64,000 nt of DNA. It comes from Gammaproteobacteria bacterium. Lineage in GTDB: Bacteria; Pseudomonadota; Gammaproteobacteria; Eutrophobiales; Eutrophobiaceae. Shown here one piece after another: positions 4,822-38,022 of this stretch. Within the stretch, counting starts at the first letter, position 1. Each line of letters begins with the position of its first letter. Made by a program: the position numbers and the translations under genes. The stretch lies in NCBI GenBank assembly GCA_965215365.1, contig CBDCDS010000003.1, positions 2,568,992 through 2,632,991 on the forward strand, read 5' to 3'. The notes under the pieces are model-generated. The model saw only the letters and a program-made list of their open reading frames with translations. It made no database searches and had not been told where the DNA came from.

Positions 4822-6111
4822 ATGGGTCCCAACTGGGCAAATCGTACACTGTTTCACGGTGATAATCTGGATTTCATGCGCGCCATGGATAGCGAGTCTG
4901 TCGACCTGATCGCCACCGACCCGCCATTTAACAAGGGCCGGGACTTCCACGCGACACCGGACAGTCTAGCCGCAGGCGCGTCATTTCAAGATAGATGGTC
5001 GTGGGAAAATGATGTACATCAGGATTGGATTGATCAACTTACAGATGACCACCCTAACCTGATCGAAGCAATAGAATCTGCCCGCCATGCCCACAGTGAA
5101 GGTATGGGCGCGTATATGTGCTTTATGGCCGTCCGGCTGCTTGCCATGCGGCGGATACTCAAGTCCACGGGGTCAATTTATCTGCATTGTGATCCGACTG
5201 CCAGCCATTATCTTAAGGCCGTTATGGATGCGATATTCGGGTATAGGAATTTCAGGAATGAAATTGTATGGTCGTACAGAAGATGGCCGTCAAAAAGCCG
5301 CCATTTCCAGACCATGCACGATATTCTGCTATTTTACACAAAGGGAACGGATAACATATTTAATGTCGATTATGAGCCTGCCAGCGATAGCTATCTAAAG
5401 CGATTTAAGGGGAAAACGCAAATTCTTGATCCTGAAAACAAGACTCGGAAGATACCCGTGGATGCACCGACAAAAGGTATGCCGATGAGGGCTGTGTGGG
5501 ATATTTCGTTTATTGCTCCGGCATCAAAAGAGCGCACTGGCTACCCGACACAAAAGCCCATCAAACTATATGATCGAATCATTAAAGCATCCAGCAATGA
5601 AGGTGACATTGTCTTTGATCCGTTTGCAGGTTGCGCAACGACCTGCGTCGCCGCAGAGCGTTTGAACAGGCAATGGATAGGGATTGATATATGGGACAAA
5701 GCGTATGAAGTTGTCATCAAGCGCTTACATGAAGAAGTGGGTCTATTTGGGGATGTTCACTATTCCGATACTATCCCGACGCGCACCGATGACGGCTTGA
5801 CGGCTGCGCCGTACCTTAAGGTCAAGCAATCCATCCCTGAACCACCGGGACGGAAAATGTCCAGGGCGGAAATGTATGAAATATTGCTATCGCAACAGGG
5901 CACGAAATGCCAGGGATGTGATCGGAAATTCGATGATGCCCGTTACTTGGAGCTCGACCACAACACACCAAGGGCGGACGGTGGGCCCAACCACATATCC
6001 AACCGCATCCTGCTATGCGGTCCCTGCAACAGGCTGAAAAGTCATATATACACTTTGTCGGGGCTCAGACGCGAGAATGAAAAACGGGGATATATCCGCA
6101 GTGAGCGCTGA
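4822..6111 (+). CDS. Beta-class N6/N4 DNA methyltransferase fused to C-terminal HNH endonuclease
   Basis: DPPF (motif IV) precedes 'YPTQKP' and 'DPFAGCATT' (motif I); C-terminal CxxC...LELDH...NHISN...CGPCN HNH; visibly more AT-rich than flanks. Confidence 0.88.
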   Translation: MGPNWANRTLFHGDNLDFMRAMDSESVDLIATDPPFNKGRDFHATPDSLAAGASFQDRWSWENDVHQDWIDQLTDDHPNLIEAIESARHAHSEGMGAYMCFMAVRLLAMRRILKSTGSIYLHCDPTASHYLKAVMDAIFGYRNFRNEIVWSYRRWPSKSRHFQTMHDILLFYTKGTDNIFNVDYEPASDSYLKRFKGKTQILDPENKTRKIPVDAPTKGMPMRAVWDISFIAPASKERTGYPTQKPIKLYDRIIKASSNEGDIVFDPFAGCATTCVAAERLNRQWIGIDIWDKAYEVVIKRLHEEVGLFGDVHYSDTIPTRTDDGLTAAPYLKVKQSIPEPPGRKMSRAEMYEILLSQQGTKCQGCDRKFDDARYLELDHNTPRADGGPNHISNRILLCGPCNRLKSHIYTLSGLRRENEKRGYIRSER

Positions 6112-7533: not shown

Positions 7534-8577
7534 CTAACGCAGCTGCTTGAGCAGTCTCAGTACCTCGGCAACGGGTTTGATCAGGTCATGGGGGATGTAG
7601 TTCTCGACATTGGCCTGTTCGTGCAGTGAGTGCGCCAGCGGCACGTTCTCCATGATGGGGACGCCTTCTTCTCTGGCAACCTTGAGTAAACGCTGTGCCT
7701 GGGCGCCTTCCGCCTTGAAAGTGACGATGGGTAGCGGGGTCTTTTCCTCATCATAGAGCAGGCCTACGGCAATATGGGTCGGGTTGGTGATGATCACCGA
7801 AGAGCGCTTCACGTTTTTCACCTGTTCGCTGTTGATGATTTCACTGAATAGCTGTTTGCGCTTGCCCTTGATGTGCGGGTCACCTTCCGCCTCCTTATAC
7901 TCCTGCTTGACCTCTTCCTTTGACATCATCAGTTCCCTGGTGTATTTGCGCCGGGCCAGACCGAGGTCCACCACCGCGACCACGGTAAACACCAGCAGGG
8001 AGTAGATGATGATATTCTTTAACACCGCCGTTGTGACAGGCAGGATGCAGCCGAGGTTGCAATCGGGCAGGCTGAACAGCTCCGGGATGTTATGGTACAA
8101 GGCAATACTCAGGATTGTGCCCAGCGCCACAATTTTAAGAATATTTTTCAATACCTGAATGACCGAGTCCCGGGTAAACAGCTTTTTGAGTTTTTCCACC
8201 GGGTTGATATGACTCAATTTGGGCTGAATGGACTCAAACGCAAGCAGCGGGCCAACCTGGAAAAAGTTCAGCAGCAAGGCGGCGAGTGCGGCGGTGCCGA
8301 CGACGATAAAACTTATCTTCAGCATGACGATTGCGCCGCTGCGCGCCGTGGCCACCAGCACGCTGCGCGTGTCGGCCTGTTCCAGGTGAGTGGCCATGAG
8401 CATGATACGCTCGAAGTCCTGCAAAAACGCCGCGCCGGCGCCAAGGAAGCACAGCACTACGGCAACCAGCGTGGCCAAGCTGCCAATCTCATTGCTCTTG
8501 GCAACCTGTCCTTTTTTGCGGGAATCCCGTATCCTCTTCTGGGTGGGTTGTTCGGTCTTGTCGGCTGAGCCGGCCAT
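7534..8577 (-). CDS. sctU: T3SS export apparatus switch protein (YscU/FlhB family)
   Basis: 'DKTEQPTQKRIRDSRKKGQVAKS', 'EGDPHIK', NPTH autocleavage motif. Confidence 0.95.
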   Translation of the reverse strand: MAGSADKTEQPTQKRIRDSRKKGQVAKSNEIGSLATLVAVVLCFLGAGAAFLQDFERIMLMATHLEQADTRSVLVATARSGAIVMLKISFIVVGTAALAALLLNFFQVGPLLAFESIQPKLSHINPVEKLKKLFTRDSVIQVLKNILKIVALGTILSIALYHNIPELFSLPDCNLGCILPVTTAVLKNIIIYSLLVFTVVAVVDLGLARRKYTRELMMSKEEVKQEYKEAEGDPHIKGKRKQLFSEIINSEQVKNVKRSSVIITNPTHIAVGLLYDEEKTPLPIVTFKAEGAQAQRLLKVAREEGVPIMENVPLAHSLHEQANVENYIPHDLIKPVAEVLRLLKQLR

Positions 8578-8652
8578 ATTTTCCAGCGCGTTTTGACTTG
8601 ACGGTTAATCTAATTTATTTTTGTATGGGAAACAAGTTTCACAAATCGATTC

Positions 8653-10296
8653 GTGACTGAGTCCAGGTTCATATTAAAAATTCTCTCCGGCCTGCACGTG
8701 GGGGCGGAGTTTTCTCTGCCGCTCGGTGTCAGCCGTCTTGGTAAGTCTCCAGATTGCGATATTATCCTGCACGATCAGGGGGTTGCAGACGAGCATCTGA
8801 TATTCCGCTGCAGTGGGCAGGAGACCTTGGTGGAGTGTCCGACACAGGAGTCTGCGGCCCTGCTGAATGGCACGGATGAGCTGCGCGAGCAGGGGCCTTA
8901 TACGGTCAGCGAGTATGGCCTGATCACCAGCGCCGGTCTCTACCTGGCGTTGGGCACCGCCGACGCGTGCTGGGATATTCCACCGCCCGAACGCTTGTTT
9001 ACGCAATTTCTTGAGGCTCGACGCGCGGCGCAACCGGCGCCAGGGTCGGTGCAGGTTGATGCCAACGCCGACCACGCGCCGCCGGGAGAGGAACAGCCGG
9101 CGGCGCAGACTGAAGAGCTGGCGCCGGAGAATGGGCCGGCGCGGTCGGAAGATGAGTTGCCGGCACCGGGAGACGAGTTGGCGGGGCAAGCTGAACTGGC
9201 GGCGATGCAAGATGAGCCAGCCGCGCCCGGGGCTGACCCGGCCACCGCGCAGGACCACCCGGTAGCCGCGTCGGGTCAGGAGCCGGCTACCGCCGGCGCA
9301 CAGCAAACCGGGCGGGTGCCGGGCGACCACGCCGCGTCGGGGGCGTTCCAACGATTGTGGCGGCGCGCGCCGCGGCGCGCCCGCGTCGCCGGTGCCGGCG
9401 CGCTGGCGGTCGTGGTGCTGGGCGCCGGGTTATTCTACTGGCACAGCAAATTGCAACTGCCGGTAGAAGTCGCGCACGAACCCGCCATAACACTGGCTGA
9501 GATCGAACGCGTCGCCGCCGATTTCAAGCTCGACGCCAGTTTTGAACTGCTCGATAAAAACCTGTTGCAAGTCAGTGGCTATGCGCTCAACAGTGACGAA
9601 AAACACGGGTTTGTGCGCGCCATGTATGCGCGCGGCATCATCGTTAAATCCCGGCTGGTGCTCACCGAGCAGTTCAAAAACAATATCCTGAATATCCTCG
9701 AACAACTGGTCAACCCGGCTCGCCATGAGACCATCAGCGTCTCGGTAAAACCGGACGATATCAGGACCCTGGTACTGCGCGGTTACGTGCAGGACGCCGA
9801 AAAGTGGCAGGCGGCGCTTGCCGAGACCCTGCGCCTGGTCGATGCCATCGCTTACGAGGATGAGGTTGTGCACTGGGATGACGGCTATCGCCACCTGCAG
9901 GAACTGATACAGAGCCATGACGCGGGCGCCTTGCTACGCCTGCAAGACGACCGCGAAAACGACCGCATCCTGCTGTTTGCCACGGATTACCATAATGCCG
10001 ACGAGCCGCGGCTGCAAGCGCTTGCTCAGGAGTACCGCCGGCGCTACGCTCGCCCGGAACTGCTGCTGTCCGGGCCCGGCGAGCAGGAAACGCTGAACCT
10101 GCCGGCATTCACCGCCAACAAAATCCTGGGTGCCAGTTTTAACGTCCTGAACTACGTGCTACTAGATGACGGGCAACGCTATTTTGTCGGTGCTCTCACC
10201 CCGGACGGTTACCGGATTGATGAAATCAATGAAACGTTTGCCATTTTTTCACTGGCCGGCGCGGACTATGTCCATTATTTCCAAACCATGCCCTGA
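8653..10296 (+). CDS. sctD: T3SS inner-membrane ring protein (YscD family) with N-terminal FHA-like domain and long acidic/Pro linker
   Basis: 'LKILSGLHVGAE...LGKSPDCDIILHD..VADEH' FHA-like domain, single TM, C-terminal 'YVLLDDGQRYFVGA..PDGY.I..I' YscD motif. Confidence 0.88.
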   Translation: MTESRFILKILSGLHVGAEFSLPLGVSRLGKSPDCDIILHDQGVADEHLIFRCSGQETLVECPTQESAALLNGTDELREQGPYTVSEYGLITSAGLYLALGTADACWDIPPPERLFTQFLEARRAAQPAPGSVQVDANADHAPPGEEQPAAQTEELAPENGPARSEDELPAPGDELAGQAELAAMQDEPAAPGADPATAQDHPVAASGQEPATAGAQQTGRVPGDHAASGAFQRLWRRAPRRARVAGAGALAVVVLGAGLFYWHSKLQLPVEVAHEPAITLAEIERVAADFKLDASFELLDKNLLQVSGYALNSDEKHGFVRAMYARGIIVKSRLVLTEQFKNNILNILEQLVNPARHETISVSVKPDDIRTLVLRGYVQDAEKWQAALAETLRLVDAIAYEDEVVHWDDGYRHLQELIQSHDAGALLRLQDDRENDRILLFATDYHNADEPRLQALAQEYRRRYARPELLLSGPGEQETLNLPAFTANKILGASFNVLNYVLLDDGQRYFVGALTPDGYRIDEINETFAIFSLAGADYVHYFQTMP

Positions 10297-10318
10297 CGCG
10301 ACCCTATCGTTCTCCCTG

Positions 10319-12637
10319 ATGTCAGCAGACCGGACTCCAAGACTAGAGCGCAAGCTCATCTACTGGTCGGTGCAGGTGTTCATCATTCTGTACCTGACGG
10401 TGGCCGCCATTATCATCTACAAGGAAACCCTGGATTTCAATGCCGACACCGAATTTTATTCAGCCATTATCTCCGCGGAAGTCAGGGCTGATTTTCTGGA
10501 AAATATCCGCAAGTTCGAAAATTATGTCAAGCGCCGGGTAACGGATTTCCAGTTGTCGGCACTGGCGGCTGACCCTGCCGGAATGCTTGCCGGCTTGGCC
10601 CCGCAGGTGCCGCCGGGACTAGATTGGCTAGTCATGTCGCAAGAGACGCGCACCGACATCCGGGTGACCCGCTACCATGCCACAAGCCAGACCTTGGCAC
10701 CGGCCAGCCGCACTGAGCCGGCCGACGCAATGTTGACGCAGACGCTGCAACGCAGGTTTTTTGACGGTGGCCTGAACGACGGCTGGGGCGCGCCGCTGTT
10801 GGGGAACGATGCCAACTGGCTCTTGCCTTATGCCGTGAAACTGGACGGGTTGCGGTTGTTGATCATGCTGACGCCGCTGGAATTTTTTTTCAGCGGCACT
10901 ACGGTCTGTTATGAGCAGGATGAGTTGCAGCGGTTATTGGCGACAGACCCTGACCCGGCCGCCGCGGACAATGTGTCCACGCCGCGCCTCGCAGCCGTGC
11001 GCAGCCTCTATGCCGACTCCGCCGGCACCTCGGGAGCTTCGCTCGGGCACTGCCTTAACGTTATCGAAAAAGACGTTGTTATGGAGTTCATGCCGGCGGT
11101 GAAGTGGTATGACCTGCTGTCGCTACCGGACTTTATCAGGACTTACTACCACACCGCAGTGCCCGGTCTGGTGCTTGGTATTGAGTACGACACCGCCGAT
11201 TTGTATGACGAGCTGCGAACTTACCTGCTCTGGGTGATGGCGCTGCTGCTCTGTGTGTTTGGCCTGATTATGCTGGTTATCCGGCGGCTGGCCAGGAAAA
11301 TCCTGCGTTCGCTCATCGAGCTGCTTGCCACGGCCAGGGAAATCAGCGAAGGACACCTGGAGACGCGCCTGCCCGAGCGCCAGGATTACCTGGAGCTGGC
11401 GCAGTTCGCCCGGCTGGTCAACAACCTGATTGAACGCTTGCAAGTACAGGTGGAGCGGTTGCACCGGGAAACCATGAAATCCGCGGCGCTGGATAATGAG
11501 CTTGCCATCGCCGGCCGGATCCAGCAAGAGCTGGTGACACAATACGACCTTGAAGAGCTCAATAACCGTTTCAGTTGCGATATCGGCGCCTTCCTGGCGC
11601 CGGCCAAACAAGTCGCCGGTGACTTTTACTGTCTGGCGCCGCGCCCGGACGGTAAATTGCTGTTTGCCATCGGTGACGTCTCCGGCAAGGGCATTGCCGC
11701 AGCTATCGTTGCCCGGGACTGTGTCAATCTGCTTATGACCAACGGCAAGCGCCTGGGTCTGGCCGACCTGTTGCAGGTTACCAACACCACCTTGTACGAA
11801 CGCTTTGCCAGCCAGTCCATGTTTGCCACCTTGTATTGTTGTCTGCTCGACCCCAGGCGTGGTCTGCTGGAACACGCTGACGCCGGCCACGAAAACCCCC
11901 TGCTGTACCAAAAGCGCGACGCCGCCATTGGTCGCTTGCCCGTGGCGCGTAATATCGCACTCGGCTTTTTGCCCGATGCAATCTATGAGACCAGTGCGCA
12001 ACAGCTGGCCGCAGACCATTGCCTGTTGCTTTATTCAGATGGTCTGGACGGCGGCCTGGAACAGATACGCGCGTCACGCGGGCTGCCGCTGGGTGTTACG
12101 CTGCTCACCAACGCGGCGCTGAAAAACGTGGAGATGCAAACGCTGTTGCAGTGTGTTTACAAGCAGGCGCTGGAATTGCAGGATAACCGCGCCTATGATG
12201 ACATCACTATGGTCGGCGTGTCCATGCAGCAACGCGGTTATAAATCCTTTCAGCTGCCGCCGGGGCCGGAGGCGGCCGGCACCGCCATTGTGCGCTTGCG
12301 TGAGCTGTGCGCGACACGCGCGCTGTCCGCCGAATGCAGTAACCGGCTCTGTGTCATACTGGATGAATGGGTGAGTAACCTGGTGCGCTATGCCGAGGTT
12401 GACAGCGATATTATCGTATCCTGGCTGGTTGCGGAGACCGAGGTTGTGCTGGAAATTGTCGCACGCTGTAATAACATTCTGAACCCGCTGCAACAGCCGC
12501 AGCCGGAGGTGGAGGCGCGCTTGCAGTCCGAGGCAGTCGGTGGTTTTGGTCTGCATATCATTCGCAAGCTGGCGAGCGAACTGGTTTTTGACGTAACTGA
12601 ACGCTGGACCAGGCTGGAGGCGCGGGTCGCACCATGA
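10319..12637 (+). CDS. Membrane sensor: TM-periplasmic-TM-HAMP-SpoIIE/PP2C phosphatase-HATPase_c (RsbU-RsbW-like fusion)
   Basis: 'VAGDFY', 'IGDVSGKG', 'AGH', 'YSDGL', 'DDIT' PP2C motifs; C-terminal 'LDEWVSNLVRYA' and 'GGFGLHII' anti-sigma-kinase motifs. Confidence 0.85.
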   Translation: MSADRTPRLERKLIYWSVQVFIILYLTVAAIIIYKETLDFNADTEFYSAIISAEVRADFLENIRKFENYVKRRVTDFQLSALAADPAGMLAGLAPQVPPGLDWLVMSQETRTDIRVTRYHATSQTLAPASRTEPADAMLTQTLQRRFFDGGLNDGWGAPLLGNDANWLLPYAVKLDGLRLLIMLTPLEFFFSGTTVCYEQDELQRLLATDPDPAAADNVSTPRLAAVRSLYADSAGTSGASLGHCLNVIEKDVVMEFMPAVKWYDLLSLPDFIRTYYHTAVPGLVLGIEYDTADLYDELRTYLLWVMALLLCVFGLIMLVIRRLARKILRSLIELLATAREISEGHLETRLPERQDYLELAQFARLVNNLIERLQVQVERLHRETMKSAALDNELAIAGRIQQELVTQYDLEELNNRFSCDIGAFLAPAKQVAGDFYCLAPRPDGKLLFAIGDVSGKGIAAAIVARDCVNLLMTNGKRLGLADLLQVTNTTLYERFASQSMFATLYCCLLDPRRGLLEHADAGHENPLLYQKRDAAIGRLPVARNIALGFLPDAIYETSAQQLAADHCLLLYSDGLDGGLEQIRASRGLPLGVTLLTNAALKNVEMQTLLQCVYKQALELQDNRAYDDITMVGVSMQQRGYKSFQLPPGPEAAGTAIVRLRELCATRALSAECSNRLCVILDEWVSNLVRYAEVDSDIIVSWLVAETEVVLEIVARCNNILNPLQQPQPEVEARLQSEAVGGFGLHIIRKLASELVFDVTERWTRLEARVAP

Positions 12638-12643
12638 ACTCTC

Positions 12644-13966
12644 ATGCGTTATAACCTTGCCTACATTACCGATACGATTCAGAAAGTGACGCAGGAAGCC
12701 CGCTTGTTTCAGCTGCATGGCAAGGTCACCAAAGTCACCGGCACCTTGATCCGGGCGAGTGTGCCGAATGCGCAAATCGGCGAACTCAGCGTGTTGCACA
12801 GCCCCAATTCGAGCGTCGATGTGCCGGCGGAAGTGGTCGGGTTTGACGGACGCGAAGCCATACTCAGCCCGGTCGGCAGTATGCTGGGTGTCTCCAACGC
12901 CACGCTGGTGTCGCTGACCGGGACTGTGCAGAGTGTGCCGGTGGGTCCGCAGTTATTGGGCAAGGTACTGGACGGCCTGGGTAATCCCATCGGTGCCCCG
13001 CCCATCAAGACCAACATCTGCTACCCGGTGATGGCACCGCCGCCGGACCCGATGAGGCGCAAAATCATTGACAAGCCGGTCACCACCGGGCTGCGCGCGC
13101 TGGACAGTTGCATCACCCTGGGCGAAGGGCAGCGTATGGGTATTTTCGCCGCCGCCGGGGTGGGCAAGAGTACCTTGTTGTCAATGCTGGTGCGGCATAC
13201 CGACACCGAGGTCGTGGTGCTGGCGCTGATCGGCGAGCGCGGCCGGGAAGTGCGCGAGTTTATTGAACATGACATCGGCACCGAAGGGTTGCAACGTTCG
13301 GTGCTGGTCGTCGCCACTTCGGATAAAAATTCCTTAGAACGCCTGAAGGCTGCCTACGTGGCCACGGCCATTGCCGAATATTTCCGCGATCAGGGTAAGC
13401 GCGTGCTGCTGCTGATGGATTCCGTGACCCGTTTTGCCCGCGCCCAGCGCGAGATCGGACTGGCCATCGGTGAGCCGCCCACCCGGCGTGGTTTTCCGCC
13501 GTCGGTGTTCAGCGAGTTGCCGAAACTGCTGGAGCGGGCCGGTAATTCCGACAAAGGCTCCATCACTGCGCTTTATACGGTGCTGGTGGAAGGCGATGAC
13601 ATGACCGAGCCCGTCGCCGATGAGACCCGCTCGATTCTCGATGGTCACATCATCCTGTCCCGGCAACTGGCTGAATCCGGCCATTACCCCGCCATCGACG
13701 TCACCGCCAGTGTCAGTCGCGTGATGCCGGCTATCACCGACCCGGAACACCAGCGTTTGAACCTGCGCATGCGCGAATTGTTGACCAAACGCAAGGAAGT
13801 GGACCTGCTGGTTAAGGTGGGCGAGTATAAGTCCGGGGCGGATAAACTGGCGGATGAAGCCATCGCCAAAAACGATCAGCTGGTTAAGTTTCTGCGCCAG
13901 CAGCGCGATGACGTGGCGCCTATGGACGCGGCGCTGGAGCGCTTGCGCGCCATTATTGACGGTTGA
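12644..13966 (+). CDS. sctN: T3SS ATPase (YscN family)
   Basis: Walker A 'AAAGVGKST', 'LIGERGREV', '[10 protein letters not shown]', 'GHYPAIDV'. Confidence 0.96.
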
Positions 13967-14535: not shown

Positions 14536-15636
14536 GTGCCCACCGAAACATCAACCGCCTCAGCTGCGCCGCCGGTTTTCCTCACCGGCGCGGCCGGTCA
14601 TGTCGGCGCCAACCTGTTGCGACGCTTGCTTGATGATGGCGTGCGCGTGCGGGTATTGCTGCGCCATGAGGACAATAACGAGGGCCTGGAAGGTCTTGAC
14701 GTTGAACGCGTGTACGGCGATATCCGTAATCTCGATGAGACCCGGCGCGCGCTGGAGGGTTGTCAGGGTGTTTACCACGTTGCCGCCAAAATTTCGACCA
14801 TTGAAGGCAATCTGGCGCACCGCCGGGAAATATACGAGTGCAATGTGATCGGTACCCGCAACGTGCTGCAGGCGGCACGCGAAACTGAAGCCGGCCGGGT
14901 GGTAGTAACCGGCTCGTTCAGCGCCGTGGGATACGATCTGGACAACCCGTCCGCACCCGCGCACGAAAACATGCAGTTCTACCCCATGGAGCGCACCATG
15001 CCTTACGAGCGCAGCAAGTCATTGGTGGAGCATGAGTGCTGGCGCGCCGCGGCCAGGGGCCAGGATGTGGTCGTCGCCACCTGTTGCGCAGTAGTTGGCG
15101 GCGCGGATTTCTTCCCGTCGCGCCTGGGCCGCACCTTGTGCGACTATTCCCACGGCAAACTGCGCGCGTATATCGAGGGCGGTTTCGAGTTTGTCGCAGC
15201 CAGAGACATCGTAGCAGGGCATGTGTTGTGCATGCACAAAGGACGCTCCGGAGAAAAGTATATCTTCAGCAGCGAATACAAGACCATCTCCGAGATCGTG
15301 GCCATGTTCGAAGAGGTGTCGGGCGTGCCGCAACCCGCGCGCCGGATTCCGTCGCCGGTGATGCTGGTCTTCTCAGAGGTGGCCAGCTTTTACCTGAGTC
15401 GCGCGCACCCGGACTTCCCCCAGCGCTTTACGCCCGGCGCCATCCGCCTGCTGCGTAAGCGCCTGCATGCCAATACCAGCAAGGCCCGACAGGAATTGGG
15501 CTACCAGCCCACCAGCATCCGGGATGCCATGCACGAGGCCTACGCGTTTCATTATCACCAGCGCAAGGTGATTACCAATCCCGCGGCGCGACCGCCGCGC
15601 GCCAACGGCGCGGAATCGACGCATGGGGCGCAATAG
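14536..15636 (+). CDS. NAD(P)-dependent 3-beta-HSD/decarboxylase-like SDR (SdmB-like sterol C-4 demethylation)
   Basis: 'TGAAGHVG' Rossmann motif, YxxxK 'YERSK'; adjacent to Rieske oxygenase in sterol operon. Confidence 0.75.
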   Translation: MPTETSTASAAPPVFLTGAAGHVGANLLRRLLDDGVRVRVLLRHEDNNEGLEGLDVERVYGDIRNLDETRRALEGCQGVYHVAAKISTIEGNLAHRREIYECNVIGTRNVLQAARETEAGRVVVTGSFSAVGYDLDNPSAPAHENMQFYPMERTMPYERSKSLVEHECWRAAARGQDVVVATCCAVVGGADFFPSRLGRTLCDYSHGKLRAYIEGGFEFVAARDIVAGHVLCMHKGRSGEKYIFSSEYKTISEIVAMFEEVSGVPQPARRIPSPVMLVFSEVASFYLSRAHPDFPQRFTPGAIRLLRKRLHANTSKARQELGYQPTSIRDAMHEAYAFHYHQRKVITNPAARPPRANGAESTHGAQ

Positions 15637-15678: not shown

Positions 15679-16821
15679 ATGATAAGCTTGGAAAACACAC
15701 AAGTCACCGCTGTTGACGACTCCATGCCGGCATCGGAGGCGCCGCCTGGCTTCGCTGACGGCGGCACCCTGCGACAACAATCACGCGCGGCAGGGATGGA
15801 CCCGGATTACTGGTACGCGGTGGAAGAGGTGCGTAATGTCAAGCCGGGGCAGGTCGTGGAAGTCGTCTTCTGGAAACGTTCCATCGCTCTGTTTCGTACC
15901 GACGAAGGTTCATTTCACGCAGTTGAGAACCGCTGCATTCATCGCCAGCTGAAGCTGTCCCTAGGCAATGTGGAAGGTTGTCGGCTGGTATGCGCCTATC
16001 ATGGCTGGCAGTATGATAAAAACGGCCGTTGTGTCGAAACCACGCACAACCGCTTCGGCAAAGAGCTCCCGGAACTTGGATTGAAGACCTACCCGGTGCA
16101 GGTGCGTTATGGCCTGGTATGGTTGTTTCCGGGCGACCCGGCACAGGCGCAGCAACGCCAAATCCCGGAAATTCCTGAGCTGGAAGGGCCCGATCGCTGG
16201 GCCTGTGAGCCGCTGGTTCTCAATTTTTCGGCGCACCACTCGATGGTCATCGACAATGTCAGCGACTTTACCCACGCTTGGCTGCATCGCCGCTACAAGC
16301 CGTTTGAACAAGGCGCAGTACTCACCGAGCACGAGGTCGTCGGCGACAATGTGCACCTGTCTTACGACACCAAGGTCGGACGCGGGCGCATCTCCGGACT
16401 GTTTGTCGATCATGAGCGCCTCAATACCAACCACATGAAGCTGTGCTACCAGTACCCCTACCAGTGGTCCAACACCGATGACGAGATCAAACACTGGTTA
16501 TTCGTACTGCCGATCGACGAGCGCACCACCCGCTCTTTCTTCCTGTTTTACTTCAAGTCGCTGAAAATTCCATTGCTGCCGATACGCATCCCCCGGATTG
16601 CCATGGAGGCGGTGATAAAGATCTCAAACCGCATACTGATCGGCCCCCTGCTGGACCAGGACCGGGTGGCGGTGGAGGCCGAACAGGAAGGTTATGACAG
16701 CCACTGGCACGCCCGTTCCGTCGAGTATAACCCGGTGGTGCAATCGTTCCAGCGTGTGACCGTACGCAAGTGGCGAGAATACCTGGAGCGGACCTCGAGC
16801 AACGGCAGTGCTGATGCCTGA
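15679..16821 (+). CDS. Rieske non-heme oxygenase (SdmA-like sterol C-4 methyl oxidase)
   Basis: Rieske 'CIH...CAYH' and mononuclear Fe 'DNVSDFTHAWLH...D' motifs; operon context. Confidence 0.75.
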   Translation: MISLENTQVTAVDDSMPASEAPPGFADGGTLRQQSRAAGMDPDYWYAVEEVRNVKPGQVVEVVFWKRSIALFRTDEGSFHAVENRCIHRQLKLSLGNVEGCRLVCAYHGWQYDKNGRCVETTHNRFGKELPELGLKTYPVQVRYGLVWLFPGDPAQAQQRQIPEIPELEGPDRWACEPLVLNFSAHHSMVIDNVSDFTHAWLHRRYKPFEQGAVLTEHEVVGDNVHLSYDTKVGRGRISGLFVDHERLNTNHMKLCYQYPYQWSNTDDEIKHWLFVLPIDERTTRSFFLFYFKSLKIPLLPIRIPRIAMEAVIKISNRILIGPLLDQDRVAVEAEQEGYDSHWHARSVEYNPVVQSFQRVTVRKWREYLERTSSNGSADA

Positions 16822-17887
16822 GGCGTTCTCGACACTGTCAGGCGGCGACCTGGTGGCGGCAGCGCTGATGCTGTTGGCGTTCGTCGGCTTGTTGTTCCTA
16901 GGTTCAATACTACTGCCGGGGGCGCAGGTGGAAGGTCGCCAAAGCAATTACCAGCTGAACGGACTGGTCCTGTTCCTACTGAGCCTGCTTGTGGTCGCGA
17001 TGGCTCAGGTTTTCGGCTGGTTTTCCCTGACCATACTGCATACCCACTTTGTTGAGTTGTTCATTGTAGCCAATATCTTTGCTTTTGCCGTTTCCGGCTG
17101 GCTGTACCTGCGCGGCGCCAGCGCGGCGGACCGGCCGGCGGGGTTTTTACGTGGGTTTTTCTTTGGCCGGGAACAGGACCCGGCCTGCTTCGGGGTGGAC
17201 CTGAAACTGTTCAGCTACCGCCCTTCCCTGATCGGGCTGGCGCTGCTCAACCTGTCGTTTGCGGTCGTGCAGTATGAAACTTATGGGACGCTGACTCCGG
17301 CCATGGCGTTGTATCAGGCATTTACCTTGCTGTATATATTCAACTACTTTCAGTTTGAACACGGCATGATATACACTTGGGATATCATCAGCGAGCGGCT
17401 TGGCTGGATGCTGGTCTGGGGCGACTATGTGTTGGTGCCATTTTTCTATTGCATCGCCGGCTGGTGGCTCATCGACGCGCCGGCGGCGCTGTTGTCTCCG
17501 GCCGCTGCGGCCGGAATTGTCGCGTTGTTCCTGTTCGGATTCTGGCTGTTCCGCGGTGCCAACGAGCAAAAACATCGGTTCAAGCAGGACTCCGCTACCA
17601 AAATCTGGGGCAAGCCGGCGCAGACGCTGGACGGACGCTTGCTGGTGTCCGGTTTCTGGGGCATCGGACGGCATCTGAACTACACCGGCGAGATCTGCGT
17701 GTATCTGGCGTTTGCGCTCACTACCGGGTTCGTATCTTGGATACCGTTCCTGTTGCCGCTGTGGCTGGCCTGTCTGCTGGTGCACCGGGCCTGGCGCGAT
17801 GAACAGCGCTGCCACGCCAAGTACGGGGAGCTGTGGGGGCGCTACAAGCAGCGCGCCCGTTTTTCCATGGTGCCATTTGTGTATTAA
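16808..17887 (+). CDS. ERG4/ERG24-family sterol reductase (probable Delta14-reductase)
   Basis: Polytopic; 'WDIISERLGWMLVWGD', 'FRGANEQKHRFK', 'LLVSGFWGIGRHLNYTGE', 'RDEQRCHAKYG'. Confidence 0.9.
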   Translation: MLMPEAFSTLSGGDLVAAALMLLAFVGLLFLGSILLPGAQVEGRQSNYQLNGLVLFLLSLLVVAMAQVFGWFSLTILHTHFVELFIVANIFAFAVSGWLYLRGASAADRPAGFLRGFFFGREQDPACFGVDLKLFSYRPSLIGLALLNLSFAVVQYETYGTLTPAMALYQAFTLLYIFNYFQFEHGMIYTWDIISERLGWMLVWGDYVLVPFFYCIAGWWLIDAPAALLSPAAAAGIVALFLFGFWLFRGANEQKHRFKQDSATKIWGKPAQTLDGRLLVSGFWGIGRHLNYTGEICVYLAFALTTGFVSWIPFLLPLWLACLLVHRAWRDEQRCHAKYGELWGRYKQRARFSMVPFVY

Positions 17888-17890
17888 CCG

Positions 17891-19249
17891 ATGAGCAACG
17901 TCCCCGCCCCTCAACTGTCCGGTAGCTGGCCGTTGCTCGGTCACCTGCCAGAGTTCTACCGGGAGCCGACGGTCATGCTGAGTCGGGCCTGGGGTGAGCA
18001 TGGTGAACTGGCGCACTTTCGCTTAGGTCCGCGCGCGTTCGTCCTGTTTACAGGGCCTAAAGCGCATGACCATTACTTCCGCGCGCCCGAGGAGCAGCTC
18101 GACCCTAGGGTAGTGTACCAATTCACCGTACCCATCTTCGGGCGCGGCGTAGCCTACGATGTTGCGCCCGAGCTCATGTCCGAACAAATCGGCTTCCTGT
18201 CCCCGTTATTGCGGGAAGCGTCCATGCGCAACTATATCAACATCATGTTTGACGAGGCGCGCGCCTTCGCGTCCGCCCTCGGCACAGAGGGCATTATTGA
18301 TCTGCCGCACGCGCTCAATGAACTGACCGTCAAAATTGCCAGCCGTTGTCTGCTTGGCGAGGAGGTGCGGGCGCAGGTGGATACAGGTTTTGCCGAGACC
18401 TACCACGAGCTGCAGAGCGGCATTAATGTGCTGGGCTTCTTCTTCCCCAAGGCGCCGATAGCGGCGCACCGGCGACGCGATCGGGCGCGGCGTGAAATAG
18501 CCAACACTTTTAGCGGGATTATGGCTGCGCGCAGACGTTCCGGCGCCACGCCGGAGGATTTCATGCAAGCGCTGATGCAAGCGCGTTACAAGAGTGGGCG
18601 CGCCTTGAGTGATGAAGAGATTACCGGCATTTTGCTTACGGTGTTGTTTGCCGGCCAGCACACCAGCGCCGTGCTCGGAGCCTGGACCGGCCTAGAATTA
18701 ATGCGCGCGCCGGACTATCTGCAGCAGGTCCGGGACGAGTTGCAGGAAGTCTATACTTCGACCGGCGAGATGAGCCTTGACAGTCTGAAAAAACAGCCCA
18801 AACTGGAAAACGCGGTGCGCGAGTGCGAACGGCTGCACCCGCCGCTGATCATATTGATCCGTAAAGTGTTGCAACCTATGCACTATGCCGGTCAGAGCGT
18901 GCCGGCCGGCACGCTGGCCATGGTGTCGCCAGCCGTTTCGCACCGGTTGCCACATGTGTTTCCCAACCCGGAACGCTTTGCCCCGGAGCGCTTTGCGCCC
19001 CCGTCAAGCGAACACAAACAGCACCACTACGCCTTGATTGGCTTTGGCGGCGGCAAACATCGTTGCGTGGGGGAACATTTTGCTTATATGCAACTCAAGG
19101 CGCTTTGGAGCGTGCTGTTGGACCGCTTCGATTTCCAGCTGGAAGGCGCTTTTCCCGCCCCCAACTACCGTAGTTGGGTCACCGGGCCCGTGGAACCTTG
19201 CCGGGTACGTTACCAACGCCGCGCGCAAACAAGCGTTTTCCGTCAATGA
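17891..19249 (+). CDS. cyp51: Sterol 14-alpha-demethylase cytochrome P450 (soluble, not ferredoxin-fused)
   Basis: 'YQFTVPIFGRGVAYD', I-helix 'AGQHTS', ExxR 'ECERLHPP', heme 'FGGGKHRCVG'. Confidence 0.92.
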   Translation: MSNVPAPQLSGSWPLLGHLPEFYREPTVMLSRAWGEHGELAHFRLGPRAFVLFTGPKAHDHYFRAPEEQLDPRVVYQFTVPIFGRGVAYDVAPELMSEQIGFLSPLLREASMRNYINIMFDEARAFASALGTEGIIDLPHALNELTVKIASRCLLGEEVRAQVDTGFAETYHELQSGINVLGFFFPKAPIAAHRRRDRARREIANTFSGIMAARRRSGATPEDFMQALMQARYKSGRALSDEEITGILLTVLFAGQHTSAVLGAWTGLELMRAPDYLQQVRDELQEVYTSTGEMSLDSLKKQPKLENAVRECERLHPPLIILIRKVLQPMHYAGQSVPAGTLAMVSPAVSHRLPHVFPNPERFAPERFAPPSSEHKQHHYALIGFGGGKHRCVGEHFAYMQLKALWSVLLDRFDFQLEGAFPAPNYRSWVTGPVEPCRVRYQRRAQTSVFRQ

Positions 19250-22200
19250 GCAGCCTTGCCGCCGAACGCTACGATGTCGCCATCGTCGGCGCCGGTCCAG
19301 TAGGTAGCTTGTGCGCGCTGGCCCACGCGCAGAAGGGCGCGCGGGTGGCGTTGCTGGAAGCCAACCCCAAGGCCTCGCTGCGCTTGGCCGGAGAATGGCT
19401 GCATCCGCCGGCCGTGCGTATGCTGCGAGCAGTCGGCATAGCAATCGACGAACAGCCGCGCAGCAGTACGGGAGAGGGGTTTGCCGTGTTCCCGGAAGAC
19501 GGCTCCGAGCCGATAGTCTTGCCTTATCCGAAGGGTGAATGTGGGGTAGCCTGTGATCACACCGCGTTGGTGGCGCGCCTGCATGAGGCGGTGGAGGACG
19601 AACCCGATATCGATTTTTTACTTCATGCCAAAGTACGCGAAGTTGAAGATGGGCAACTCGCGTTCGCCCGCAATGGCACCTTGGAGACCCTGGCGGCAAC
19701 GAGTATCGTCGGCGCTGATGGACGCTCCTCGGTGGTGCGCCAATCACTGGGGTTGCCGGGAAAGCGGATCCCCTGCTCGCGCATGGTGGGGGTGGTCGTT
19801 GAGGATGCGGAGCTACCCGTAAAAGGTTACGGGCACGTTTTGCTTGGGGCGCCGGGGCCAATTCTCGCTTATCACACCGGCGCGCGCCACGTCAGAATCA
19901 TTGCTGACATTCCGCTGGACCACTGGAGCCCCAAGGACCGGGCTAACCTGCTGTCGGAATCGTATGCCGAACTGCTGCCGGAGGCGCTCAAGGCCGGATT
20001 TATAAAAGCAGTGCAGTCAGGAAAATTCCATGCCGCGGCCAATGAACTCAGACCGCGCGTCAGTTACGGCACCTGGCAGCGAACGCTAATCGGAGATGCG
20101 GCCGGTCACTACCACCCCCTGACCGCAGTGGGCATGACCCTGGGTTTTGGCGATGCCCTGATGCTCGCCAAGTGCCAGAACTTCAATGAATTCAAGCGTC
20201 AACGTTTTCGCGATATTCGCGCGCCGGAGCTGCTGGCCATGGGTATGTATGAGGTATTTGCCGATCACCGGGGCGAGGCCGTGGCGCTCAGGACCGCCAT
20301 GTACCAGAACTGGTTAAAACTGCCCATAGTGCGCGACCGCACCATGCGTTTGCTCGCCTGTGAGGATCGTTCCATAGTGAGGCTCGGCCTGGCCACCTGC
20401 GTGACGGCGCTGCGCGCGCTGACGACACAGACCCCGCACACCTTAAACCGGCTGGCCTGGCGCCGTACCGGTGACGTCATGGGCGCCTTGGCCTCGCGGG
20501 TGGTATGGTTCCTGCACGGCGTTGACATTCTGAGCAAGTTGCGGCGTAACGGCGACAACATGGAAAACAGGTTCCGTGAGGTATTGGCGCGTTCATTCCT
20601 GATTTCCGTGCCTCCCGAAAAAACCGGCGTCGAGCCAGCCGCGCCCAAGGATACAATATCTTTTGACGCGAGCCCGGCCTTGCACAAAGCCGGCGCACGC
20701 CTGCTGAGTTTACAGGGTGATGACGGCGCCTGGGAAGGGGAGATGGTATGGTGCCCCATGCTCACTGCGCAATACGTGTTATTGCAGCACCTCCTAGAGC
20801 AACCCATCGAAGCCGGCCGGCGCCGGCGGATACTGCGTTCGTTTGCGTGTTCCCGTCTGGACAACGGGCTGTGGAGTTTGCATGAACACCCACCCGCCAA
20901 CCTGTTTGTCACCACCCTGGTTTATGTTGCCGCGAGATTGCTTGGCCTTGAGCAGGATGATACGCTGCTTAAGCCGGCGCAACGTTTTCTGCAAGCAGAA
21001 GGCGTGCGCGCTATCCCCAGCTGGGGCAAGTTCTGGCTGGCGCTGCTCAACCTGTATGACTGGCGCGGGGTGAATGCCATCCTGCCGGAGTTGTGGGGAC
21101 TGCCGCGCCGACTGCCATTGCATCCTTCCAACTGGTACTGTCATACCCGGCTGATCTATATGGCCATGGCCTCGGTTTATGCGCACCGCTATCAGGCCCC
21201 CGTCACGACCACCATTGCCGCGCTGCGCGAGGAGCTGTATCCACAAGGGTATGAGCAGGTTGATTTCGTCGCCGGCCGCAACGACTTGCGGGCCGGTGAC
21301 CTGTTTGCCCGCCCCGGCGTCTGGTTACGCGCCGGCTACGCCTTGACCCGTCTGTACGAGCGCTACCATAACAAGCGCTTGCGCAACCAATGCCTGGAGG
21401 CGCTGCGCGGGCAGATATCCTGGGAATTACAGAGTAGCAGCCATACCAGCATCTCACCAGTGAGCGGTTTTCTCAACATCCTGGCCTTGTGGTTGCGCGA
21501 TCCGGACGATGCCGACTGCCGTCAGGCGCTGGCAAAGCTGGACGACTGGTTCTGGGAAGATGAAGAGCACGGCGCGCGGGTGACCGGTGCCCGCAGCAGC
21601 TCCTGGGATACCGGCTTCGCCCTGCAAGCGCTAGCCACGGCGCCGGATGTTGCAGGCGCGCCCAAAGCCATGCGCAAAGGCGCCGAGGCCCTGCGCAACC
21701 AGCAGATCCAGGTCAGTTTTGAGGGCTATAAGGAGGCCTACCGTAATGACCCCCAAGGCGGCTGGTGCTTCCCCGGAGGCTGGCATGGTTGGCCGGTGAG
21801 CGACTGCACAGCAGAGGCGGCGCTGGGGATAATGGCGGTGCAGGGCGCTGCTACCAACCCGGAAATGCTGGCCGCTGCCGCACGCTTTATGTTGCGCAGC
21901 CAGAATCGCGACGGTGGCTTTGGCAGCTACGAGGCACAGCGTTCCCGTTTTGATCTGGAATGGCTGAATCCGGCGGAGATGTTTGGCGAGTCCATGACTG
22001 AGCACTCCTACGTGGAGTGTACCGCCTCGTGCATGGCCGCGCTGGCCGCGTGCCGGGAGCACGCGCCGCAAAGCCTGCCTGAAGCAGCGCCGGACGCCAT
22101 GTCCCGGGCCGAGTCGTGGCTGCGTAATACGCAGTCCAGCGACGGTTCCTGGCGTGGCGTCTGGGGCGTACAGTTCATCTATGGCACCTTGTTCGGCATC

Positions 22201-22641
22201 CGCGGGCTGATTGCCGCCGGGGCGCGCCCGGGCGACCCGGCGTTGCGTCTGGCCTGCCGCTGGCTGCTGGAACGTCAACGGGAGGACGGCGGCTGGGGCG
22301 AAAGTCTGCATGGTTGCCTGAGCGGCGAGTACGTTCCACATGAGGAAAGCCAGATTATCCAGAGCGCCTGGGCGCTGATTGCACTGCTTGAAGCGGGCGA
22401 ATCAAACTGGCCCATGATTGTGCGCGGCATCCGTTATCTGGCCGCCACTCAAAATGAGGACGGAAGCTGGCCCAGGCAGGACATGGCTGGCGTGTTTTTT
22501 CGTACCGCAATGTTGGATTACGTACTGTATCGGCAGTACTTTCCTCTGCACGCGCTGGGTTTGTACGAACGGCGGCGGCGGGCGCGGGCGGAGCTGGCGC
22601 AGTCGCTCAACCCATTACCAAAACCTGATGGTGTTACCTGA
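19246..22641 (+). CDS. Squalene epoxidase-oxidosqualene cyclase fusion protein
   Basis: N-terminal FAD monooxygenase ('IVGAGPVG', 'GEWLHPP', 'GADG', 'IGDAAGHYHPLTAVGMT'); C-terminal OSC with 'VSDCTAE', 'WYCHTR', QW repeats, 'WGVQFIYGT'; no stop between; ATG 19246 overlaps cyp51 TGA. Confidence 0.92.
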   Translation: MSSLAAERYDVAIVGAGPVGSLCALAHAQKGARVALLEANPKASLRLAGEWLHPPAVRMLRAVGIAIDEQPRSSTGEGFAVFPEDGSEPIVLPYPKGECGVACDHTALVARLHEAVEDEPDIDFLLHAKVREVEDGQLAFARNGTLETLAATSIVGADGRSSVVRQSLGLPGKRIPCSRMVGVVVEDAELPVKGYGHVLLGAPGPILAYHTGARHVRIIADIPLDHWSPKDRANLLSESYAELLPEALKAGFIKAVQSGKFHAAANELRPRVSYGTWQRTLIGDAAGHYHPLTAVGMTLGFGDALMLAKCQNFNEFKRQRFRDIRAPELLAMGMYEVFADHRGEAVALRTAMYQNWLKLPIVRDRTMRLLACEDRSIVRLGLATCVTALRALTTQTPHTLNRLAWRRTGDVMGALASRVVWFLHGVDILSKLRRNGDNMENRFREVLARSFLISVPPEKTGVEPAAPKDTISFDASPALHKAGARLLSLQGDDGAWEGEMVWCPMLTAQYVLLQHLLEQPIEAGRRRRILRSFACSRLDNGLWSLHEHPPANLFVTTLVYVAARLLGLEQDDTLLKPAQRFLQAEGVRAIPSWGKFWLALLNLYDWRGVNAILPELWGLPRRLPLHPSNWYCHTRLIYMAMASVYAHRYQAPVTTTIAALREELYPQGYEQVDFVAGRNDLRAGDLFARPGVWLRAGYALTRLYERYHNKRLRNQCLEALRGQISWELQSSSHTSISPVSGFLNILALWLRDPDDADCRQALAKLDDWFWEDEEHGARVTGARSSSWDTGFALQALATAPDVAGAPKAMRKGAEALRNQQIQVSFEGYKEAYRNDPQGGWCFPGGWHGWPVSDCTAEAALGIMAVQGAATNPEMLAAAARFMLRSQNRDGGFGSYEAQRSRFDLEWLNPAEMFGESMTEHSYVECTASCMAALAACREHAPQSLPEAAPDAMSRAESWLRNTQSSDGSWRGVWGVQFIYGTLFGIRGLIAAGARPGDPALRLACRWLLERQREDGGWGESLHGCLSGEYVPHEESQIIQSAWALIALLEAGESNWPMIVRGIRYLAATQNEDGSWPRQDMAGVFFRTAMLDYVLYRQYFPLHALGLYERRRRARAELAQSLNPLPKPDGVT

Positions 22642-23675
22642 TGACACAGACACGCGAAAAAAGCAAAAAACCTGGTTTTCTTGGGGATCTGGCTTCGCAT
22701 GAAATCAAGTCGGTGGTCAATGAATACCGTGAGTTACATGATGCCGACCTGACGCATAGAAAGGAAAGCTATCAGAAACTCGTCAACCACTACTATGATC
22801 TGGCCACCGATTTCTACGAGTTCGGGTGGGGTCAGTCTTTCCACTTTGCCCCCGGGCGACGCGGCGAGAGCTTCAAAGATGCGTTGCTCAGACATGAGCT
22901 GTTCCTGGGCGGGAAGCTGGAGTTAAAGTCAGGCATGCAAGTCCTGGACGCAGGCTGCGGAGTGGGCGGGCCAATGCGCAATCTGGCCCGCCATACCGGT
23001 GCCAGTATTACCGGGATAAACAATAACGCCTACCAGATTGAGCGCGCGCGCAAGCACACCCGCGAAGTCAGCTCACTGTGCCGCCTCATTCATGGTAATT
23101 ACATGCAGATCCCGGAGACTGACAACCATTTCGATGCCGCCTACGAGATAGAAGCCATGCCGCACGCACCGGACCGGACTGCAGCGTACCGTGAGGTCTT
23201 GCGCGTGCTGCGTCCCGGCGGCTGCTTCGCCGGCTATGGCTGGTGTCTCACCGAGCATTTCGATCCGCAAAATGCCGATCACCTGCGCATCAAGAAGGAT
23301 ATTGAGGTAGGCAATGGAATGCCGGACACTCCCACCACAGCGGAGGTGGATGCAGCGTTGCGCGCCGCCGGGTTCGAGCTGCTGGAGGGCCGTGACCTTG
23401 CCTCCGAAGCAGACCCGGAAATGCCCTGGTACCGCCCTTTGCAGGGTGACTTTTTCAGTCTTGCGAGCCTGCCACGCACGCCAACCGGGCGCGCGCTCAC
23501 AAATCTGACTCTGAGGGTAGGAGAGTGGCTGCGACTGGTGCCGAGGGGCGCCCGAGACACCAGCACGATACTGAATCAAGGCGCTGATGCTTTGGTCGCA
23601 GGCGGCAAGGCTGATATATTTACGCCCATGTATTTCTATCTGGTACGCAAGCCAAACGCAGAAAAATCTGCATGA
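22641..23675 (+). CDS. Sterol C-24 methyltransferase (ERG6/SMT family)
   Basis: 'YYDLATDFYEFGWGQSFHF' (region I), 'LDAGCGVGGP' (SAM), 'IEVGNG', 'FTPMY'. Confidence 0.92.
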   Translation: MTQTREKSKKPGFLGDLASHEIKSVVNEYRELHDADLTHRKESYQKLVNHYYDLATDFYEFGWGQSFHFAPGRRGESFKDALLRHELFLGGKLELKSGMQVLDAGCGVGGPMRNLARHTGASITGINNNAYQIERARKHTREVSSLCRLIHGNYMQIPETDNHFDAAYEIEAMPHAPDRTAAYREVLRVLRPGGCFAGYGWCLTEHFDPQNADHLRIKKDIEVGNGMPDTPTTAEVDAALRAAGFELLEGRDLASEADPEMPWYRPLQGDFFSLASLPRTPTGRALTNLTLRVGEWLRLVPRGARDTSTILNQGADALVAGGKADIFTPMYFYLVRKPNAEKSA

Positions 23676-24235
23676 AATACGTATTTGACCCTGAAGTCCT
23701 GCGCGAGGTTGCGCAAGCCCACCTAGAGCTGCCGCTGGAGCAGATGATGCTGGCAATTACTGAGGATCTTGCCGAGCGTTATCCAGGCCGGATCCAGCTC
23801 GAGCGTGAATGGGTCTTCAACAACGCTGGCGGCGTCATGGGGCAGTTCACTATCCTGTACGCTTCGTTATCGGAGTACCTGATCTTCTTCGGCACGCCCA
23901 TCGGTAGCGGCGGGCATACCGGGCGCTATCATTTTGCCGAGGATTACGCATTCGTCTTAGATGGTGAGTTCTGGTATTTTAATCAGGGCGATACTCAAAG
24001 ACAGGAGTTCCGTAAAGGCGATTTCGTGCATCTGCCGCAAGGCGCGGCCATGGGTTTTTGTATGGTGGATCATGCCTGGATACTGGAATATGTACGCGGC
24101 CCGGTAGTTACCATGCTCCCGTTCGGACTCGCCGATACCTTATTCAGTACGCTTGACTACCGCACTTTGTTTCGTACCTTCCGCCTCTACGGTGGACATG
24201 TATTGCGTTCGCTCAGGAAGCCGCCTGGGCGGTAA
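23672..24235 (+). CDS. ERG2/sigma-1 receptor family C-8 sterol isomerase
   Basis: 'WVFNNAGGVMG', 'YASLSEYLIFFGTPIGSGGHTGRY', 'LPFGLADTLFSTLD'. Confidence 0.92.
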   Translation: MKYVFDPEVLREVAQAHLELPLEQMMLAITEDLAERYPGRIQLEREWVFNNAGGVMGQFTILYASLSEYLIFFGTPIGSGGHTGRYHFAEDYAFVLDGEFWYFNQGDTQRQEFRKGDFVHLPQGAAMGFCMVDHAWILEYVRGPVVTMLPFGLADTLFSTLDYRTLFRTFRLYGGHVLRSLRKPPGR

Positions 24236-38012: not shown

Positions 38013-38022
38013 GCCCAAGGCA

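Follow-up and report, generated by a model that had tools for sequence, protein, structure and literature searches.

We analysed a stretch of 64,000 nucleotides (hereafter the window) from contig CBDCDS010000003.1 of a gammaproteobacterial genome (GCA_965215365.1), in which seven genes, all on one strand and either closely packed or overlapping, form a translationally coupled sterol operon (Table 1). The fifth of these genes, here called SE-OSC, joins a squalene epoxidase (SE) to an oxidosqualene cyclase (OSC), and this fusion, its distribution and its likely function are the subject of this text. A preliminary description made from the letters of the window had read an uninterrupted frame of 1131 residues at positions 19246-22641, and both the list of open reading frames (ORFs) and the translation agree, as the sole stop lies at the end of the gene. 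The ORF list gives a single ORF here (19174..22641, plus strand), which would count 1155 residues from an upstream TTG. Because homologue alignments begin at residue 1-10 of SE-OSC, we consider the ATG at 19246, which forms an ATGA overlap with the TGA stop codon of the preceding P450 gene, to be the likely start.

The fused gene and its two halves

The domain layout follows from Pfam matches along the protein. The flavin adenine dinucleotide (FAD)-dependent half is covered by FAD_binding_3 (aa 9-309, 74.6 bits, cut-off 22) and SE (PF08491, aa 155-311, 82.4 bits, cut-off 20.1, restricted to profile positions 6-164 of 276), and the cyclase half by SQHop_cyclase_N (aa 480-773, 175.5 bits, profile 2-290 of 291) and SQHop_cyclase_C (aa 784-1108, 187.8 bits, profile 2-318 of 319). 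The preliminary description had located most of these parts well: the cyclase that it placed at ~20680-22600 is borne out with both of its domains complete (aa 480-1110), the DCTAE motif starts exactly at 21802 (VSDCTAE starts at aa 851), and the linker string that it quoted (PPEKTGVEPAAPKDT) was found at aa 456-470 (nt 20611-20655). Its end of the epoxidase at ~20400, however, had to be moved to about aa 455 (nt ~20610) by residue count against human SQLE. Between the last SQLE-aligned position (aa 307) and the linker lie 148 residues, versus 143 in human SQLE 118-574, where those residues form the membrane-associated helical domain. No direct sequence match between this C-terminal epoxidase region and the human helical domain was obtained. 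The hydropathy maximum of the whole protein (aa 411-429, KD19 1.44) falls short of what transmembrane helices usually show, and no such helix was predicted in SE-OSC.

Table 1. Features of the window, with positions in the window unless residues (aa) are given, and independently assembled contigs that cover the SE-OSC junction.
Feature	Position	Strand	Basis or remark
N6/N4 DNA methylase with C-terminal HNH endonuclease	4822-6111	+	one 429-aa ORF
FlhB/YscU family	7534-8577	-	upstream of operon
YscD-like cytoplasmic-domain protein	8653-10296		upstream of operon
HAMP-SpoIIE phosphatase-HATPase protein	10166-12637		upstream of operon
EscN-type ATPase	12644-13966		upstream of operon
NAD-dependent epimerase/3-beta-HSD gene (SdmB/MsbA-like)	14536..15636	+	first of operon; Pfam, synteny
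Rieske [2Fe-2S] oxygenase (SdmA/MsbB-like)	15679..16821	+	Pfam Rieske and VanA_C, synteny; overlaps next gene
ERG4/ERG24-family sterol C-14 reductase	16808..17887	+	Pfam, 247 bits
CYP51 sterol 14-alpha-demethylase	17891..19249	+	452 aa; Pfam p450; stop overlaps SE-OSC start
SE-OSC fusion gene (P0001)	19246..22641	+	1131 aa; open frame, Pfam, full-length homologues, junction-bridging contigs
SE FAD-binding and substrate-binding part	19246..20178	+	aa 1-311; Pfam FAD_binding_3 and SE, human SQLE alignment
GxGxxG motif	19288-19305	+	aa 15-20
GD motif	aa 283-284	+	within SE part
SE C-terminal region	20179..20610	+	aa 312-455; presumed counterpart of human SQLE membrane-associated helical domain
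Pro/Ser-rich linker	20611..20682	+	aa 456-479 (~25 aa); least conserved internal stretch
OSC domain	20683..22575	+	aa 480-1110; SQHop_cyclase_N/_C, TIGR01787, human 1w6k alignment
DCTAE catalytic motif	21802..21816	+	D853 aligns with human D455, V851 with human V453
Sterol C-24 methyltransferase (SMT/ERG6-like)	22641..23675	+	Pfam Sterol_MT_C and methyltransferase domains
ERG2/sigma-1-receptor family (sterol C-8 isomerase-like)	23672..24235	+	Pfam ERG2_Sigma1R, 211 bits
641-aa RTX calcium-binding repeat protein	40034-41959	-	next after 3223-aa ORF
3223-aa ORF, fibronectin type III and Calx-beta repeats	41961-51632	-	
Contig X1	covers 19000-21994		0 differences; may be source sample
Contig X5	covers 20305-22900		0 differences
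Contig X6	covers 19000-22900		13 substitutions, 0 gaps
Contig X10	covers 19306-22900		41 substitutions, 0 gaps

Both halves retain the sequence features of their enzyme families. The human SQLE structure 6c6n aligns to aa 10-307 (E 5e-24), and G15, G17, G20, E38 and D284 are invariant in all 81 fused proteins compared; we take the GxGxxG motif, the glutamate (FAD ribose) and the GD motif to have the roles that they play in FAD monooxygenases. In the cyclase half, aa 486-1113 align to residues 84-725 of human lanosterol synthase (1w6k, E 1e-123), TIGR01787 is matched with 497.5 bits (cut-off 322.7), and V851, D853, C854, T855, A856 and E857 are likewise invariant (81/81). The pattern QxxxGxW, presumably the QW repeat of class II triterpene cyclases, occurs four times (aa 490, 963, 1011 and 1069), with two of the matches fitting the longer pattern. 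The majority-residue fraction across the 81 proteins was highest in the cyclase (0.84, aa 480-1110), followed by the epoxidase part (0.77, aa 1-311), the C-terminal epoxidase region (0.67) and the linker (0.59), and this conservation above the linker level indicates that both halves are under constraint.

SE-OSC is a genuine and conserved natural fusion. Independently assembled contigs (4 runs, 4 studies) bridge positions 20400-20700 with 0 indels, and the stop or frameshift in the linker for which the preliminary description advised a check appears in none of them. The 36 listed in-gene substitutions among these contigs comprised 22 synonymous and 14 non-synonymous changes and 0 stops. A search of a 5.8-billion-protein collection found the fused architecture in each of the 120 clusters listed (1089-1183 aa, 65-100% identity, at least 96% query coverage). 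A genome search of one-genome-per-species data confirmed 438 of 478 pattern matches, and the best 80 loci, which we analysed, each align from query residue <=10 up to residue >=1104 (60-81% identity) and read in a single frame (80/80). Within its own genus, a full-length, stop-free gene was present in 10 of 23 genomes, with a further genome in which contig ends split it into two parts, and the fused gene was found in 0 of 18 genomes sampled outside the genus, where the matches were only a squalene-hopene-cyclase (SHC)-like cyclase (24-30% identity) or weak FAD matches. One could still suspect that an assembly or base-calling error in the linker (a lost stop or a frameshift) had joined two neighbouring genes, SE and OSC, into one, given that the two genes are adjacent and separate in known sterol bacteria (MCA2872/MCA2873; PMC4919349) and that the contig is of megabase scale, an assembly kind able to carry indel errors. 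Against this stand the absence of inserted or deleted letters at 20400-20700 in the contigs, the continuous frame in the loci of other genomes and in the listed clusters, and the same fusion in print (PMC7074536), so that such an error is already refuted for practical purposes.

The sterol operon and the distribution of the fusion

The operon around SE-OSC is made up of sterol genes throughout (Table 1), and all best PDB matches of its CYP51 were CYP51 proteins (E 9e-109). The same five-gene core (oxidoreductase-Rieske-ERG24-CYP51-SE/OSC) was found in the same order and orientation in 61 of the 80 loci, and at least erg24-cyp51-SE/OSC was colinear in 69; in 8 loci the fused gene stood alone within 6 kb. 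The methyltransferase (SMT) gene was often found 3' of the core on the opposite strand (28/80), and in L011 and L013 alone was the fused gene's strand continued immediately by ERG2. Scanned against Rfam at gathering thresholds, the window gave 0 matches. Elsewhere in the genome, a SQS_PSY-family gene on another contig (G000:C1:19048-19920, 196 bits) makes a supply of squalene plausible. A weaker squalene/phytoene-synthase member (38 bits, cut-off 26) lies at 37804-38847 (plus strand) in the window, 15 kb downstream of the operon. The genome also encodes an SHC-like cyclase of ~698 aa (G000:C3:1717067-1718956, minus strand) with 28% identity to the OSC part, and an SHC-like cyclase is likewise present in each of the 22 further genomes sampled from the genus; together with the sterol operon, this suggests that the organism may make both hopanoids and sterols.

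Going by their record titles, 55 of the 80 loci belong to Pseudomonadota, and seven further phyla are represented: Nitrospirota (7), Binatota (3), Actinomycetota (3), Chloroflexota (3), Thermodesulfobacteriota (2), Rhodothermota (2) and Acidobacteriota (1), with 4 loci unassigned. The nearest relatives, including a cluster with 83% identity, were labelled Gammaproteobacteria, and several of the locus record titles name sponge-associated lineages. A Nitrospira host, suggested by homologues named from Nitrospira metagenome-assembled genomes, was rejected on account of the gammaproteobacterial labels. In a FastTree tree of the 81 fused proteins we counted 8 changes of phylum label, where the minimum is 7. 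Each phylum thus forms nearly one clade and few transfers between phyla are apparent, which speaks against rampant inter-phylum shuffling; this tree alone is not proof of horizontal transfer.

A wider view came from searching 1.84 billion cluster representatives exhaustively with HMMER, which gave 6492 matches. We classified the best 150 of these together with the query (151 proteins) by BLAST against the two halves, and this yielded 10 full SE-OSC fusions, 3 partial fusions, 88 OSC-only proteins, 49 proteins starting with SE and 1 fragment. The full fusions were the query, its family representative and eight divergent clusters (33-54% identity in the OSC part). For a tree of the OSC domain (77 rows; quick IQ-TREE, LG+G4), we left out 28 of the 88 OSC-only rows (coverage below 90%, or longer than 860 aa except P0201 and P0211), the partial fusions, the SE-type rows and the fragment. 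All 17 fused rows fell in one 21-row clade (SH-aLRT 100), with 56 other unfused OSCs outside. The clade also holds four unfused rows of 644-689 aa (P0129, P0133, P0134 and P0151; P0129 comes from a Myxococcota metagenome-assembled genome, MAG), which are candidates for secondary fission or for unfused ancestors. The starred branches of this tree force no more than one change of state, and hence a single origin of the fusion with few fissions, or with unfused early branches, is possible.

Other joined proteins came to light among the same matches. Eleven of 1078-1200 aa (P0187, P0197, P0204, P0207, P0214, P0216, P0223, P0224, P0243, P0244 and P0264) belong to a second kind of fusion; the six that were scanned have an N-terminal SE-type monooxygenase and a C-terminal squalene/phytoene synthase domain, and their middle ~350 aa are poorly conserved, with QW-like repeats and neither DxDD nor DCTAE. 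This arrangement looks like a squalene synthase joined to a squalene epoxidase via a degenerate cyclase remnant, and one such protein is named from a Myxococcota MAG. P0201 (1022 aa) has a squalene-synthase domain (aa 29-327) ahead of a complete oxidosqualene-type cyclase, and P0211 (1063 aa) has an unassigned N-terminal region of ~420 aa ahead of its cyclase. Pathway fusions around squalene thus appear to take several forms.

The preliminary description could not tell how often such fusions had been reported. This one is not new: fusion and operon were already known from sponge-symbiont bacteria in 2020 and 2022, the fused protein being in print as MsbE (2020, PMC7074536) and as "fused SMO/OSC homologs" (2022/2023; mentioned by Brown et al. 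2023). Mohanty et al. 2020 described the msb locus from a gammaproteobacterium that lives in symbiosis with the sponge Melophlus sarasinorum, in the order msbA (NAD(P) oxidoreductase), msbB (Rieske oxygenase), msbC (sterol reductase), msbD (C-14 (C30) demethylase) and msbE (SE/cyclase), and reported flavin-binding residues in the N-terminal part of MsbE and the key valine in its cyclase (PMC7074536). The gene order is that of the window, and it is by description and gene order that we liken MsbE (record MT026193.1) to SE-OSC; in contrast to the msb locus as described in the available part of that paper, the operon here continues in the same orientation with SMT and ERG2. Kelly et al. 2022 found an ERG24-CYP51-'LSS/ERG7' cluster in 115 of 537 MAGs from Ircinia sponges, spread over 11 classes and 10 phyla (eight among our loci), gave an omega of 0.17 for 'LSS/ERG7', and inferred horizontal transfer from incongruence with the genome tree (PMC9531527). 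Their cluster shares with the window the three-gene core and a 5' flank ('DFR' and a hypothetical protein) that matches the SdmB-like and Rieske genes; the SMT gene is often on the opposite strand 3', as in the 28 loci counted above, whereas the SMT and ERG2 genes of the window run in the same direction as the core and are coupled to it translationally. The codon alignment of the Ircinia gene (3765 positions) has the length of a fused gene (PMC9531527), and yet in the available text the gene is named lanosterol synthase only, the epoxidase half goes unnamed and 'squalene' occurs once. No mention of the fusion was found in PMC10152446 or PMC3505017, and the main texts of PMC8237579 and PMC7306690 do not use 'fusion', 'fused' or 'Nitrospir' in a relevant sense, although their supplements may list fused genes. 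Database names are equally one-sided: such proteins are called 'FAD-dependent monooxygenase' (NCBI) or, elsewhere, 'squalene--hopene cyclase' or 'lanosterol synthase' (P0018, P0070, P0274 and P0275). Each of these names hides one step, and an automated pathway reconstruction will therefore report the epoxidase or the cyclase step as missing.

Function of the fused protein

We read SE-OSC as a natural MsbE-type protein in which two enzymes share one polypeptide and which would convert squalene to a protosterol, and we put the probability of this reading at roughly 80%. The published reading of the presumably orthologous msbE, reached independently, is identical (PMC7074536). In the proposed scheme, the N-terminal, bacterial-type FAD monooxygenase would epoxidise squalene to 2,3-oxidosqualene, and the C-terminal class II triterpene cyclase would then form the protosterol, with D853 of DCTAE protonating the epoxide. 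As no transmembrane helix was predicted, both halves are probably monotopic enzymes of the membrane surface, like their solved human relatives. The other products of the operon could take the protosterol further through C-14 demethylation (CYP51), C-14 reduction (ERG24), C-4 demethylation (SdmA/B-like), C-8 isomerisation (ERG2) and C-24 methylation (SMT), with 4-desmethyl, 24-methyl(ene), delta-7 or delta-8 sterols as the predicted end products. The fusion itself may bring a 1:1 stoichiometry, a shared membrane patch and two steps on one transferable gene. The preliminary description had likewise proposed a natural bifunctional squalene-to-sterol enzyme; the single polypeptide, the conserved motifs and the sterol operon on which this builds all hold, while both activities, like the product, are what we infer from sequence.

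Comparison with characterised systems helps to place this reading. Methylococcus capsulatus carries out the same two chemistries with bacterial-type enzymes that bear the V453 signature (MCA2872/MCA2873), but there SE and OSC are two polypeptides and here they are one (Wei et al. 2016, PMC4919349). Human SQLE (6c6n) and lanosterol synthase (1w6k) are fold-level relatives by sequence, with the DCTAE aspartate and the FAD motifs kept; they are, however, separate enzymes of the endoplasmic reticulum, their Y195/Q168 pair is F/H in the window protein, and neither the human N-terminal regulatory region nor approximately the first 80 residues of lanosterol synthase have a counterpart in SE-OSC. Another natural sterol-pathway fusion is CYP51fx of Methylococcus capsulatus, with a linker of 20-30 residues (Lamb et al. 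2020, PMC7947880); CYP51fx joins an enzyme to its redox partner, whereas SE-OSC joins consecutive enzymes of a pathway, and the CYP51 of the window, unlike CYP51fx, has no ferredoxin domain. As to the product, the lanosterol synthase signature is T381, C or Q449 and V453 in human numbering, and among the bacteria examined by Wei et al. 2016, V453 tracked lanosterol production without exception and was the sole predictive position (PMC4919349). From V851, we predict lanosterol as the product of SE-OSC.

Several observations weigh against a working two-step enzyme of this kind or against its predicted product. The match to TIGR03463, the curated 2,3-oxidosqualene cyclase model, scored 718 bits and thus stayed below the cut-off of 851; it spans the whole model (2-633 of 634), which points to divergence and not to truncation. 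Among the product-signature residues (A782/H847/V851), the V453 position alone is lanosterol-like, and H847 at position 449 is the cycloartenol-type residue. In the epoxidase half, human Y195 and Q168 align with F79 and H53, a pair that is invariant in the fused proteins (81/81) and that we could not trace to any bacterial SE whose activity has been demonstrated. The operon shows no evident electron donor for the epoxidase, and no enzyme assay of any fused form was found in the open-access literature, supplements aside. The geometry of the protein adds a further point. The gap fraction of the linker is as low as 0.005 across the 81 sequences, and 3 of the 11 displayed rows have linker insertions of 1, 4 and 6 aa; among the divergent fused clusters the start of the OSC domain ranges from ~residue 440 to 507, so that the junction shifts by tens of residues. 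The shifting junction and the insertions speak against one rigid inter-domain geometry, and a rigid linker is accordingly disfavoured.

These observations can be turned into two other accounts of the protein. In one, the cyclase half alone would be catalytic and the SE-like half would serve as a membrane anchor or scaffold, with oxidosqualene coming from another enzyme or from the host. The loss of more than 90% of activity in the human Y195F variant (PMC6327030) would fit this account, the residue aligned with Y195 being F79, as would the partial Pfam SE match. However, the F/H pair is not peculiar to the fusion: among 57 bacterial-type SE homologues (2 of the 49 SE-type rows, shorter than 400 aa, were left out of this count) F was found in 55 and H in 56, and 32 of the homologues are stand-alone proteins of 420-530 aa. 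This pattern suggests a trait of the clade rather than decay, and the pair may define a bacterial SE clade. The FAD-binding residues are, moreover, invariant and the SE part is conserved above the linker, and a search of the genome with SE-OSC as the query found no second SE-like gene, the only other match being the SHC-like cyclase (28% identity), so that any epoxidation is probably carried out by SE-OSC. Taken together, a purely structural epoxidase half seems very improbable to us. In the other account, both halves are active but the operon product is the core of a specialised metabolite (e.g., a norlanostane saponin aglycone, as in sarasinosides) or a non-lanosterol triterpenol and not a bulk membrane sterol. 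In print, the msb locus was put forward as the origin of the sarasinoside sterol core (PMC7074536); SE-OSC has a mixed set of product-signature residues, and hopanoids made by the SHC-like cyclase could fill the membrane role. Set against this, the operon holds canonical sterol-tailoring genes only (CYP51, ERG24, SdmA/B-like, SMT and ERG2), no glycosyltransferase was found in the scanned stretch around it, and the valine corresponding to V453, with its record in bacteria described above (PMC4919349), is present. We regard this account as unlikely.

A bolder extension of the two-enzyme reading is that the C-terminal membrane helices of the epoxidase and the entrance of the cyclase form a continuous hydrophobic path, along which oxidosqualene would be handed over inside the protein, preventing over-epoxidation and loss to the bilayer; that the single gene let the five-gene cassette spread horizontally to at least 8 sponge-dwelling phyla; and that the symbionts are the real source of 'sponge' sterols. 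We consider this extension doubtful as a whole, and no evidence of substrate channelling, which the preliminary description had named as something that the fusion may allow for 2,3-oxidosqualene, was found in the open-access literature.

Other features of the window and meaning of the fusion

Outside the operon, the window contains type III secretion or flagellar-export-like genes directly upstream of it (7534-13966; Table 1). The region at 42-50 kb stands out by its high G+C (0.66-0.72) and strong AT skew, which is explained by the repeat ORFs at 40034-51632. Giant repeat surface proteins are common in symbionts.

If both halves of SE-OSC work, the gene would offer a one-gene route from squalene to lanosterol without a eukaryotic membrane system, which would be attractive for bacterial triterpenoid engineering. 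For the biology of sponges and their bacteria, a working two-enzyme polypeptide of this type would bear on whether symbionts make the sterols, including the 24-alkyl sterol biomarkers, that are attributed to sponges.

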